Positions 6,254-25,531 of a DNA stretch of 64,000 bases are shown here, piece by piece; within the stretch, counting starts at the first letter, position 1; each line of letters begins with the position of its first letter. The notes beneath the pieces were generated by a model that was not told the origin of the DNA, ran no database searches, and was given only the letters and a program-made list of their open reading frames with translations. This DNA comes from Candidatus Poribacteria bacterium (GTDB lineage Bacteria > Poribacteria > WGA-4E > WGA-3G). Location of the stretch: NCBI GenBank assembly GCA_965198235.1, contig OZ240248.1, positions 3,968,001 to 4,032,000 on the forward strand, in the 5' to 3' direction. The translations under genes and the position numbers were made by a program.

Positions 6254-7518
6254 TCTGTTCGCAACGCCTCAATTGGCGAGATGTGTGAGGCTCTCACGGC
6301 GGGATAGAGTCCGAAGACGATACCAATGCAGGCTGAAATGCTAACAGAAACTGCCATCCATTGTGGTGAGATCACGACAGGCCACTGCGGAATCACTTTG
6401 ACGATTTTGACGGCGATGTGTGAACAGGCATAGCCGGTGCCTATACCGAGACCGAGACCGAGTAAGCCGCCGATGCCGCACATCACGATCGCTTCAATCA
6501 GAAACTGCAAGAAAATGTCTTGCCGTTTCGCCCCAATAGCTCGACGGATGCCAATCTCACGGGTGCGTTGGTTCACGGAAACGAGCATCATGTTCATAAT
6601 GCCAACGCTCCCGACAAACAGCGAAAACGCGGCAATGCTACTAAGCATAATTTTGATAATGCGACTGATTTTATCAAGTTCCTTGACAGCTGCAGTCGCA
6701 AAGCTAATATCAAAAAAATTGTCTTGGTTCCGATGTCTTTTTCTTAAAACAGTTCTGACTTCCTCAGCGGCTTTCTCAATAGCATCGGCATCGACCGCTC
6801 TGACATTGAGATAATTGACGTGGCGTTTGCCTTTGAATCTATCTTGTGCCGTGGTTAGAGGTATGAACACGATGTCGTCCCAACTGAATCCGTATTGAAG
6901 GCTTGTCCCGCGTTCAGCCATAACGCCGAGGATGCGAAATCGGTCAGGTCTTCCGCCTTGAAGCGAAAGTTTGATTTCTTTGCCAACCGGATTCTGGTTT
7001 CCGAACAGTTCTATTGCGACTTCTCTACCGAGTACGCAGACTTTTCTACGGTTGCTGAATTCATCTTCGGAGAAGAAACGTCCCTGCTGAATCTGCCACT
7101 TCATTCCGGTCGGGAAATGCGAATTAACGCCATTGTATTCCGTCCATTTTGTTGCGCCACTTTCAGCTTGCGCGAGCACTTCATTAGAAATACTCGGAAT
7201 TACACATTCAACAGAAGGGCATTCGGCTTCAATGGCTAAAACATCTGCGTACCTTAAGTGTTCACCGCTACGGTTTGGAAATACGCGGTCGCCGCGCCAG
7301 ATCCACGGATTCCGACGGACGAAAAAATGACCACCAAACTTTTCAAACTCTTGCATGACGATACGCTTCGCGCCATCGCCGATAGCGAGCATTGCGAGGA
7401 CGGCAGCGACACCGATAATGATACCCAGCATTGTGAGTGCCGAACGCATTTTTTCCTGCAAGATGGCAGTGAATCCTGTTGAAAATCCCTCGTATAGTTT
7501 CAATTCTCCACTCCTCAT
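6250..7518 (-). CDS. MacB/FtsX-family ABC transporter permease
   Basis: RSALTMLGIIIGVAAV, GIMNMMLVSVNQRTREIGIRRAIGA, FGLYPAVRAS. The real start is ATG 7518 or TTG 7503 (GAGGAG SD); the longer ORF start lies inside a MITE. Confidence 0.9.
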   Translation of the reverse strand: MRSGELKLYEGFSTGFTAILQEKMRSALTMLGIIIGVAAVLAMLAIGDGAKRIVMQEFEKFGGHFFVRRNPWIWRGDRVFPNRSGEHLRYADVLAIEAECPSVECVIPSISNEVLAQAESGATKWTEYNGVNSHFPTGMKWQIQQGRFFSEDEFSNRRKVCVLGREVAIELFGNQNPVGKEIKLSLQGGRPDRFRILGVMAERGTSLQYGFSWDDIVFIPLTTAQDRFKGKRHVNYLNVRAVDADAIEKAAEEVRTVLRKRHRNQDNFFDISFATAAVKELDKISRIIKIMLSSIAAFSLFVGSVGIMNMMLVSVNQRTREIGIRRAIGAKRQDIFLQFLIEAIVMCGIGGLLGLGLGIGTGYACSHIAVKIVKVIPQWPVVISPQWMAVSVSISACIGIVFGLYPAVRASHISPIEALRTE

Positions 7519-7534
7519 CACAATGCACGTTAAA

Positions 7535-7766
7535 TAGGACTTACGCGCTTCCTCTTGAAGTCCCCCTGATAAGGGGCGGGGAATGCCATACGGGGAATGC
7601 CATACGGCATTCATACCGTTGATTCGCATTCATACCCGGGGAAGCCCACATGGGCTTCATACCGTTGATTCTGATTCTTTAGGGGGTTAAATAACTGAAA
7701 TACTCTCACTGCGAGGCATTTTTGGGTGAAATCTATTGCTTCTTTACGCAATTTGCGTAAGTCCTG
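7535..7766. mobile_element. MITE with AGGACTTACGC terminal inverted repeats and 5-bp target duplication (TTAAA)
   Basis: TTAAA|TAGGACTTACGC...GCGTAAGTCCTG|TTAAA. Same TIR as 47593-47717. Confidence 0.8.
7577..7677 (+). repeat. Three nested copies of a ~35-nt hairpin unit CGGGGAA-stem/loop-TTCATACCGTTGATTC
   Basis: Intact units at 7591-7625 and 7637-7671 interrupt an outer copy that starts at 7577. Confidence 0.75.
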
Positions 7767-7868
7767 TTAAACTTAAAATATCAAATTCGATGAATACATG
7801 CAAGTTGTTTTACTAATAAATTTGCTTTCAAGCTTTTCAGCGATAGTTTGATTTGGAACGGCACGTTT

Positions 7869-9695
7869 TCAAACATACCATTGTGCTTGTGCTTTAAAGA
7901 ACTGGGCATAAAGTCCATCTTTTGCCAATAAGGTTTCATGGTCACCGTCTTCAACGACTGCGCCGTTATCAAGGACGAGAATCCGGTCACAGGTTCGGAC
8001 AGAGGAGAGACGGTGTGAAATTAGCACGGATGTACGTCCGACACTCCGCTCAATAAATCGCTCATAGACCGCTTGTTCGGCTAAGGGGTCTAAGGCAGCA
8101 GTCGGTTCGTCAAGCACGACCAGCCAGGGGGCCTCGCGCATGAAACTCCGGGCAGTTGCGAGACGTTGCCATTCGCCACCGGAGAGATCGCGTCCGCCGA
8201 AGGTGGGACCGAGGATTGTCTCGTACCCCTCTGTGAGTCCGTCAACGACCGAGGCGGCACCACCGGCGATAGAGGCTTCTTCCATACGATCGGGGTGCTC
8301 AAGGTCGCCGAAGATAACGTTCTCACGTGCGGTAAGGTGATACTGCGTGAAGTCTTGGAAGACCGCGCTGCAACGCATCAACCACGCTCGACGGTTTTCA
8401 TCTGTGAGTGGGACATCTCCTATATGGATTATCCCCGTTTGTGGACGGTAGAGCCCTAAAAGTAGACGCGCCAGAGTGGTTTTCCCTGCGCCATTGGGCC
8501 CAACAATTGCAACCCGCTCCCCTTTTCTCAACGTCAGCGTTATGTTATTTAACGTGGGTTCTTGCGTATTTGGGTAGAAAAACGATATATTTTCTATCGC
8601 AATGTCTTGAATTGTGTTATTTCCATCTAATTCATCTGTTTTCCGATAGTGTTTCTCTACTGTGGCTGCATCGCGCCCTAAAAACTGATACAAATCTCCG
8701 GACAAACGGTGCATCTGACTGGCTATCAACTGAAAATATCCCGCCACTTCATTCCAGATGCCGTCCAGTTGGACGAGTGCGGCGGCAGCGGCGATATACG
8801 TGCCGACGGTGAGTCCACCTTGAAAGACCTCAAGTAATAGAAGAATGAGCGAACCGGCGTATAATAATCCACGGACGATGTCAATTGCAAGATGTGCGAA
8901 GAATTTACGGCGTTCAATCCTTTGTTGTCCGTGTATGAGTGTCTGCGATAACTGTTTCCAGCGGTTTATCCATAAGTCCTGAGTTTGGTATAATCGAACT
9001 TCCTTGCCCGTGCCACGATCCGTCAGTATTCCTTCTAATGCATCTCGCTCTCGGCGTTCGGATGTCTGCTCGACATCAAAGTTGTAACTATCTACAGCGA
9101 AACGCGAATCGCTCCACCAAGAGATCATGCCAGTGAATGCGGGCAGCAAAACCAATAATGGATGATAACGCCATAACACGACACCGAGGGTTACAACGCT
9201 GATGAATTGTTGAAGGCTATCAATAAGCCACCAGAGGATATTCTCAAGGTCTAATCCGGAAATCGAACGCGCTCGTTCAAGGGCATTTTGATATTCAGGG
9301 GTCTGGAATTCGATGAGTTCTGTGGTATCAGCTTTTTTAAGGATGCATTCATTCAGCCAGACTTCAATGTTTTCTCTGACACGGATATGGAGCGGTTGGC
9401 TTAACTGATTGGCAAGGGTGATAAAAATGCGTAAGCCAAGCAGCCCTATCAACCACGGAACGACTTGCTGCCACCAGTTCGTATCACCTACAGCATCAGT
9501 GATGGCATTGACGAGGTGTTCGGTTACAAAGAACTCACCGGCGGGGACAATACCGAGCGATAGCGTGAGTAGCATCATCCCCAAAAGCGCGAGTGAACCG
9601 CTTTGCCAAACGACTGCGAAAGTTCGGAGGTAGGCGAATAAAGTTTCTTTGGCAGCTGAAATCCATGTTTTCAATTTTCCTTTAGCATTTGACAT
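7869..9695 (-). CDS. ABC exporter, fused permease/ATPase
   Basis: N-terminal transmembrane segments; GPNGAGKT, LSGGEWQR, LDEPTAALDP. Confidence 0.92.
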   Translation of the reverse strand: MSNAKGKLKTWISAAKETLFAYLRTFAVVWQSGSLALLGMMLLTLSLGIVPAGEFFVTEHLVNAITDAVGDTNWWQQVVPWLIGLLGLRIFITLANQLSQPLHIRVRENIEVWLNECILKKADTTELIEFQTPEYQNALERARSISGLDLENILWWLIDSLQQFISVVTLGVVLWRYHPLLVLLPAFTGMISWWSDSRFAVDSYNFDVEQTSERRERDALEGILTDRGTGKEVRLYQTQDLWINRWKQLSQTLIHGQQRIERRKFFAHLAIDIVRGLLYAGSLILLLLEVFQGGLTVGTYIAAAAALVQLDGIWNEVAGYFQLIASQMHRLSGDLYQFLGRDAATVEKHYRKTDELDGNNTIQDIAIENISFFYPNTQEPTLNNITLTLRKGERVAIVGPNGAGKTTLARLLLGLYRPQTGIIHIGDVPLTDENRRAWLMRCSAVFQDFTQYHLTARENVIFGDLEHPDRMEEASIAGGAASVVDGLTEGYETILGPTFGGRDLSGGEWQRLATARSFMREAPWLVVLDEPTAALDPLAEQAVYERFIERSVGRTSVLISHRLSSVRTCDRILVLDNGAVVEDGDHETLLAKDGLYAQFFKAQAQWYV

Positions 9696-25386: not shown

Positions 25387-25531
25387 TAACATCAGTTCGG
25401 AAAAACATTTCGCACCACTAAGATTCGCAATGCCCCCCTGATAAGGGGGGTTAGGGGGGTTAATCTCGCACCTGATAAGCTGAATAGTGCTGTAGATAAC
25501 ATATTTCTACATTATTATAGAACTCACGTTA
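25387..25531. mobile_element. MITE-like element (TAACxTxAGTTC / GAACTCACGTTA ends) carrying a CCCCCTGATAAGGGGG hairpin
   Basis: Inverted ends; TAAGGTA is duplicated at 25382-25388 and 25530-25536. Confidence 0.65.

Follow-up and report, generated by a model that had tools for sequence, protein, structure and literature searches.

A self-nested 35-nt hairpin unit in Poribacteria, probably a non-autonomous micro-transposon

The window analysed here is a stretch of 64,000 nucleotides from a Candidatus Poribacteria bacterium (contig OZ240248.1, positions 3,968,001 to 4,032,000), and at its positions 7577-7677 it contains three copies of a 35-nt unit, with two intact units lying inside a third. 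The best explanation for this arrangement, to which a probability of roughly 0.6 is given, is that the unit is a non-autonomous, single-hairpin micro-transposon, and that the nest was formed by two entries into a resident copy and is now a passenger. The unit family is found in two genera of sponge-dwelling Poribacteria, where it amounts to thousands of copies.

Each unit is composed of CGGGGAA, a variable 4-bp stem with its loop, and TTCATACCGTTGATTC, a pattern that is matched twice in the window and in none of 100 shuffles. Positions 7561-7690 read, in order, CCCCCTGATAAGGGG, a block of 101 nt and TTTAGGGGG, and the block itself is parsed as CGGGGAATGCCATA, a unit, GCATTCATACC, a second unit and TGATTC. 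The components of the nest are:

7577..7590, + strand: outer unit, piece 1 (unit positions 1-14)
7591..7625, + strand: inner unit 1, stem TGCC/GGCA, at self-site 2 in the hairpin loop, with CG replaced
7626..7636, + strand: outer unit, piece 2 (unit positions 17-27)
7637..7671, + strand: inner unit 2, stem GCCC/GGGC, at self-site 3 (CATACC/GT/TGATTC), with GT replaced
7672..7677, + strand: outer unit, piece 3 (unit positions 30-35, TGATTC)

A first-pass annotation, made from the letters of the DNA, had proposed two intact units with compensatory stem changes, both interrupting an outer copy at a cost of 2 nt per entry, and this description stands. The outer pieces, once rejoined, give a unit that lacks CG at unit positions 15-16 and GT at positions 28-29. 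The stems of the two inner units differ by changes that compensate, such that 6 of the 12 central bases are different and pairing is nevertheless kept. Folding predicts for both inner units a hairpin of 7 bp (GAAnnnn-loop-nnnnTTC), preceded by a 5' lead of 4 nt and followed by a 3' tail of 13 nt. Self-site 2 has also been entered at two further loci (L003 and L034). A scan of window positions 7300-8000 against Rfam, at E-values up to 1, returned no match.

The 101-nt block sits in a G/C-rich host motif of 28 nt, where it has taken the place of the dinucleotide GA, and the motif in turn is carried by a MITE:

7562..7576, + strand: left half of the host motif (CCCCCTGATAAGGGG), with a CCCCC-TGATAA-GGGG(G) hairpin
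7678..7688, + strand: right half of the host motif (TTTAGGGGGTT)
7535..7766, + strand: MITE of 232 nt with terminal inverted repeats TAGGACTTACGC / GCGTAAGTCCTG, carrying the motif and the nest
7530..7534, no strand: left copy of the MITE target duplication, TTAAA (5 bp)
7767..7771, no strand: right copy of the MITE target duplication, TTAAA
6250..7470, - strand: flanking gene, MacB/FtsX-type ABC permease, outside the element
7869..9695, - strand: flanking gene, ABC transporter ATPase/permease, outside the element

That the nest lies inside a MITE, as the annotation had claimed, is borne out by terminal inverted repeats that match at 11 of 12 positions and by the TTAAA duplication on either side; another copy of the MITE is flanked by GTAAT at each end. 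The genome from which the window derives (hereafter the source genome; 5.17 Mb in 2 contigs, 96% complete) has 130 such inverted-repeat pairs counted over both strands, equivalent to about 65 MITE-like elements. Among these, the host motif is empty in 23, holds a single unit in four and holds the triple nest in four. The motif, CCCCCTGATAAGGGG-GA-TTTAGGGGGTT, is itself a dispersed micro-repeat, occurring in MITEs as well as in several unrelated contexts. With a short gap it is present in 38 copies in the source genome, the gap being GA in 29, and 11 copies carry the unit. The empty form that had been placed at about 25434-25451 of the window is real, but it is a variant of the motif, GGGGGG-TTAGGGGGG (also GG-TTAGGGGGG, at 25435-25455), and is situated outside any MITE.

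At the orthologous locus in genome G045 the MITE is absent. Two other genomes (G013, locus L198, and G011, locus L207) hold, in the region orthologous to window positions 7530-7771, a MITE that has inverted repeats of this family and occupies the same TTAAA-type site. Three species share the MITE at one site, with an interior that is wholly different in each, and the interiors of these MITEs are modular, or are exchanged.

Within the source genome, the unit occurs at 11 loci, of which seven are single units and four are triple nests, and all of them lie within the motif CCCCCTGATAAGGGG..TTTAGGGGG. Eight of the loci are in MITEs and three are elsewhere, namely in two copies of a ..GGGGGTTATCCTGATTCAGACAA repeat and at one further site. 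Since the four nests are near-identical and each is contained in a complete MITE, the nesting arose once or rarely and was carried along thereafter; they do not represent four nesting events, and the nest now moves with the MITE. Additionally, both short-interior and long-interior MITEs hold the triple nest, and both are also found empty or with a single unit, by which conversion between MITE copies is indicated. In three other genomes (G063, G021 and G050) the 138-nt nest recurs at 96-98% identity, compared to 75-89% for the adjoining genes.

In a recurrent variant of the unit, the 3' stem arm ends in (A)GAACC in place of its last two bases, which breaks the hairpin. The variant is seen with several stems (e.g. 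L006, L018 and L081) and in both inner units of the nest at C1:2081028 of the source genome. The contigs obtained from public sequencing runs, all of them short, represent a pile-up from all repeat copies and from other organisms; one such contig, from X4, joins across the whole MITE, another holds the empty GA form, and neither intermediates nor polymorphic sites were seen among these short contigs.

Before the family at large is considered, a local artefact, in which slippage, tandem duplication or misassembly would have built the nest with no insertion, has to be weighed. The first 14 nt of the nested block are a perfect tandem repeat, as slippage would produce, and extra copies of TGATTC unaccompanied by an extra left part are found elsewhere (e.g. 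L001 and L054), best explained if one of two tandem left parts was lost, or by slippage, so that events of this kind do occur. Inner unit 2, however, belongs to another stem subfamily, single copies of which occur elsewhere, and the same architecture recurs with other stem combinations in other contexts and genomes. Misassembly, which the annotation had named as a threat to its reading, is ruled out by the presence of the triple nest four times in a two-contig genome and by its near-identical copies in the assemblies of other species. The artefact is thus refuted, and its probability is negligible.

The further genomic copies that the annotation had anticipated exist well beyond the source genome. 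Units with exact flanks were found in 20 of 24 congeners and in none of 16 genomes from other families in the order. A looser pattern, applied to 176 Poribacteria genomes (the source genome and 175 others), identified units in 96 of the 175, comprising 55 of 64 genomes of genus g1, all 40 of genus g13, and one of the 71 remaining, this last (G105) having a single copy. The counts reach 404 per genome and exceed 4,600 matches in total, in about 95 genomes of the two genera. In a species-wide scan, the matches listed were all from Poribacteria or MAGs.

The compensatory changes seen in the nest are a general property of the family, as the annotation had suggested could be checked. When 34 distinct 35-nt units were aligned, pairing was kept in 98.7% of stem cells, compared to 23-45% in slid-alignment controls. 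Double changes account for 34 stem cells against 8.4 in shuffles, with none of 500 shuffles reaching 34, and folding z-scores of the units range from -2.7 to -3.3. The invariance of the ends in this alignment is imposed by the search pattern, and outer copies do show end variants such as CGGTGAA.

Among viral contigs there was one match (IMG/VR, L225), in which the nest is surrounded by typical poribacterial intergenic repeats and from which no lead to an enzyme was gained. In this contig, long tandem runs of the heptamer AATTGCT adjoin the nested unit (1540-1620). The small dispersed repeats of Nostoc are said to be accompanied by heptamer repeats. In another genome (G018:C1, ~1.15-3.13 Mb, L026-L039), a unit with the stem GTGC/GCAC is carried inside a GGCGAGGTT...AACCTCGCC hairpin by a larger repeat, dozens of near-identical copies of which are present, nearly always on the same strand. 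The strand skew of units in this genome (42 forward vs 5 reverse) was considered as a replichore bias and rejected, being due to this larger repeat. In G138, the orientation of units is unlinked to replichore (57 vs 43, strands mixed along the chromosome), and the targeting of single-stranded DNA on the lagging strand is accordingly without support.

The sites of insertion were characterized from a sample of 165 flanked instances, representing 55 distinct contexts of 5+5 nt. Independent insertion events are fewer than these copies, as one event may account for many copies in the same context once the host repeat has spread. Of 114 distinct 13+13-nt flank pairs, 60 have a short-gap counterpart, defined as a gap of 8 nt or less sought in the source genome or in fetched loci. 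These give 98 distinct combinations of pair and gap, and the gap is exactly 2 nt in 72, in keeping with the proposed loss of 2 nt without duplication. The remaining 26 have an extra GTTGATTC (10), 1 nt (9), 3 nt (5) or no gap (2). Representative empty sites, in which the middle pair of bases is the one replaced, are the following:

AAGGGG/GA/TTTAGG
CTCGCCC/AA or AG/ATGCGA
CACCCC/AG/CGGGGTG and CACTCC/AG/CGGAGTG
AAGCCC/CA/GCGGGG
GGTTTCC/TA/ACC
GTAGGAGG/GA/ACTCC
self-site 2: GCCATA/CG/GCATTC
self-site 3: CATACC/GT/TGATTC

The dinucleotides replaced are GA, AA/AG, AG, CA, TA, GG, CG and GT. On the left side of the insertion, position -2 is C or G in 45 of the 55 contexts and position -1 in 44, mostly as CC and less often as GG. 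The right side of these contexts has no base preference, and no microhomology was seen at the right junction. When the rebuilt empty sites were folded, the replaced bases fell in the loop, or 1-2 bases from the 3' foot, of a small G/C hairpin; the targets include REP loops, the hairpins of other repeats, and the loop and 3' tail of the unit itself. A model in which the halves of the unit wrap a retained central dinucleotide of the target was rejected, as filled sites carry GT whatever the target had. The unit also does not behave as a MITE in miniature: CGGGGAAT and GTTGATTC, its ends, do not form an inverted repeat, and its insertion costs the target 2 nt with none duplicated. At 35 nt it is indeed far below the size of a terminal-inverted-repeat transposon, as had been argued at first pass.

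Self-site 3 is a hot spot for nesting, with 44 distinct direct nests and no inverted ones in the sample. Nests at this site reach 4-5 levels and take the form L^n GTTGATTC (TGATTC)^(n-1); inner and outer stems differ in many of them, which marks them as insertions and not local duplications. The innermost junctions, 38 in number, comprise 28 of the -2 type, eight that read CTTGATT, one that reads CTGATTC and one that is something else. The junction also varies with lineage. All 71 junctions in G055 (g1) read TGATT and are of the -2 type, compared to G160 (g13), in which 68 of 70 self-site junctions read ...GATTC/CTTGATT (net +35, with G replaced by C). In G152 and G168 nests are almost absent. 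A native C at unit position 28 was rejected as the source of the G160 junction, as C is found in none of the four single G160 units that have a base other than G there, and a longer variant of the unit was found in none of four genomes. The C at the G160 junction thus arises with the insertion. The CTTGATT junctions of G160, the eight of this type in the sample of 38, and the 26 of 98 combinations with gaps other than 2 nt all stand against a universal 2-nt rule.

The annotation had inferred a reverse transcriptase, an HUH/RAYT enzyme or a recombinase as the mobilizing activity, and none of the enzyme families tested can be linked to the unit. Reverse transcriptase, Y1/RAYT, IS110 and serine recombinase genes are each missing from some high-copy genomes, although absence of a gene now is compatible with past activity and profile searches can miss divergent genes. 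Specifically, IS110 DEDD (PF01548) was found in none of five high-copy genomes and serine recombinase (PF00239) in one of the five. Reverse transcriptase (RVT_1, PF00078) was found neither in the source genome nor in three of the five high-copy genomes (G152, G168 and G160, with 404, 218 and 208 units), and is represented by one gene in G055 and two in G138.

These profiles bear directly on an RNA route, whereby target-primed reverse transcription of the R2 type, its second cut displaced by 2 bp, would insert the unit. Deletion of 2 bp of target is a known outcome of R2-type insertion, and a hairpin followed by a conserved 3' tail is what a reverse transcriptase might be expected to recognize. 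Contigs from an RNA library also cover the MITE, by which transcription of the window copy is not shown. Owing to the absence of reverse transcriptase from the genomes named above, the route is nonetheless unlikely, and very much so; moreover, no 5'-truncated copies were seen in the source genome, and the 5' junction is exact everywhere.

A Y1 HUH transposase, either a RAYT or the TnpA of IS200/IS605, might alternatively move units in trans as single-stranded DNA, with CGGGG acting as a guide that pairs with CC(CC) in the target. IS608 selects its target through a guide sequence, and the preference for CC 5' of the insertion is complementary to the GGGG at the hairpin foot. The unit also resembles REPs in its one hairpin with conserved single-stranded flanks, and the source genome encodes six Y1/HUH proteins (PF01797), three of them REP-flanked RAYTs and three of the IS200/605 type, with REP loops among the targets of the unit. 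Against this, no unit (left part) lies within 1.5 kb of any of 36 Y1 genes in six genomes (six in the source genome and 30 in five relatives). A search of 112 genomes found no Y1 gene in G147, G154 and G158 despite their 111, 158 and 87 units, and did find Y1 in genomes of genus g1 that lack units and in five of seven genomes of genera g9-g12. Target bases are lost here, whereas we know of no HUH transposition that removes them, and the replichore bias is lacking in G138. A Y1 transposase is therefore regarded as an improbable agent, if less so than an RNA route.

The source genome does hold a textbook REPIN/RAYT system in Poribacteria. Its three RAYT-type Y1 genes (C1: 606918-607262, 1898775-1899119 and 3853757-3854101) are each flanked on both sides by inverted REP doublets (CACYCC-AGC/GTA-GGRGTG-CTATGTCTATAGAA), and a loose 17-mer search for the associated REP, permitting up to 3 mismatches, gave 114 matches in this genome. 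The CACCCC/CACTCC target hairpins listed above are its true REPs. Two near-identical IS200/IS605-type copies, each with a Y1 tnpA and a downstream tnpB-like open reading frame, are located at C1 4381488 and 4792784, and a third tnpA of this type stands alone at C1 119838.

With every dedicated family tested missing from some high-copy genomes, it may also be asked whether a dedicated enzyme is needed at all. Errors of replication or repair, for instance a template switch where a hairpin stalls the fork or a cut of the topoisomerase type, could copy units into hairpin loops, from which mostly gene conversion would distribute them among host repeats. Conversion is in any case needed to account for the empty, single and triple states in short- and long-interior MITEs, and the interior of the orthologous MITE differs in G013 and G011. 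Yet errors are seldom as regular as what is observed, with ends exact to the base in 55 contexts, an orientation of 44 vs 0 and a constant 2-nt offset. The right junction offers no microhomology, and a junction rule that varies by lineage is a better fit to an evolving enzyme. An origin in errors is accordingly considered rather unlikely, though it retains more weight than a Y1 transposase.

The preferred reading, that of a mobile single-hairpin unit, is as follows. The unit has fixed ends (5' CGGGGAA and 3' TTCATACCGTTGATTC) around a 7-bp hairpin, the inner four pairs of which are conserved by pairing and not by sequence. It enters many unrelated sites in a single orientation, in or just 3' of short G/C-rich hairpins, and in its own genus is swapped for exactly two target bases with no duplication. 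In the window copy, the resident unit had first entered the 28-nt motif in the MITE, to be followed by two entries from different stem subfamilies, and the composite spreads by ordinary MITE transposition and probably also by conversion between MITE copies. More generally, a unit that has entered a repeat multiplies along with it, in MITE or REP copies, and through conversion. Both the element and its target are probably handled as single-stranded DNA, given that structure rather than sequence is conserved and that loops are targeted. An activity at the DNA level that is specific, acts in trans and handles hairpins is suggested by the constant ends, the strict orientation, the loop-type targets and a stem conserved in structure only; a putative enzyme would perform the joining on DNA and in trans. 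The target strand or strands would be cut 2 nt apart, either with a stagger of reverse polarity and loss of the flap, or through exchange of the loop dinucleotide.

A more far-reaching proposal, held tentatively, is that a novel strand-transfer activity swaps a 35-nt DNA hairpin for two bases in or beside hairpins, and that it represents a new class of transposase or a co-opted host enzyme. If this were true, the units would be among the smallest sequence-defined mobile DNAs, and their chemistry, consisting of a 2-nt substitution without duplication at an offset tunable by lineage, would be unlike any described transposition pathway.

The family provides a much larger natural data set for the mobility of micro-elements, with exact ends, a target rule, a hot self-target and lineage-specific junctions. 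This variation, along with the existence of unit-free relatives, makes the enzyme findable by phyletic profiling, and the 35-mer together with a REP-loop target gives defined substrates for biochemistry. For annotation, it is of consequence that a large share of poribacterial intergenic DNA is made up of units, REPs and MITEs. Literature searches on MITEs and repetitive DNA in Poribacteria, and on follow-ups to the small dispersed repeats, returned nothing on such elements in this phylum, and no mention of small dispersed repeats was found in the Delihas review.

Among known systems, MITEs share with the unit a non-autonomous and repeated character, and the carrier at 7535-7766, with its inverted repeats and 5-bp duplication, is a true MITE. 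The unit, in contrast, has neither terminal inverted repeats nor a duplication, costs the target 2 nt, and is shorter by a factor of about 5. Transposition of IS200/IS605 elements is hairpin-dependent and orientation-specific, makes no duplication, and is directed to a target of a few bases 5' of the insertion. In these elements there is a hairpin at either end, all target bases are retained and the lagging strand is favoured. The unit differs in having one hairpin, in losing 2 nt, in showing no replichore bias and in its lack of co-occurrence with Y1.

Insertion sequences of the IS1397 type target the loops of extragenic palindromes, encode a transposase and make a duplication. The unit likewise targets the loop of an extragenic palindrome, but the former are full insertion sequences that encode their transposase and duplicate their target. 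Insertion sequences directed at REP loops, IS1397 and others, are cited as references 41-42 in PMC3116915. The unit is similar to REP/REPIN elements with their RAYT transposases (Bertels and Rainey 2011, PMC3116915) in its length of ~35 nt, one G/C-rich hairpin, conserved flanks, extragenic location and hundreds of copies. It is dissimilar in that units flank no RAYT (0/36), form no inverted doublets and carry no GTAG/CGTC tag. REP loops being among its insertion sites, the unit has the true REP/RAYT system of the source genome as a target and is distinct from it.

The closest likeness drawn in the first-pass annotation was to the small dispersed repeats of Nostoc, and it is upheld by a unit of 35 nt that is found in 55 contexts, with a compensatory, covarying stem and with nesting in itself and in MITEs. 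The Nostoc elements, SDR1-8 of Nostoc punctiforme and relatives, were reportedly described by Elhai et al. in 2008 as hairpins of 21-27 nt with compensatory changes, located in MITEs and beside heptamer repeats, and nested in themselves. We know of no account since that description in 2008 that has settled how elements of tens of bases move. The unit shares with the Nostoc repeats its size of tens of bases, its dispersal, its compensated hairpin, its presence in MITEs and its self-nesting. The Poribacteria unit belongs to a different phylum, probably bears no sequence relation to them, and is longer, at 35 nt compared to 21-27 nt. An RNA route, reportedly proposed for the Nostoc repeats, is unlikely for the unit. 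For the unit, moreover, a replacement of 2 nt, two fixed self-sites and a junction that is specific to lineage are documented.
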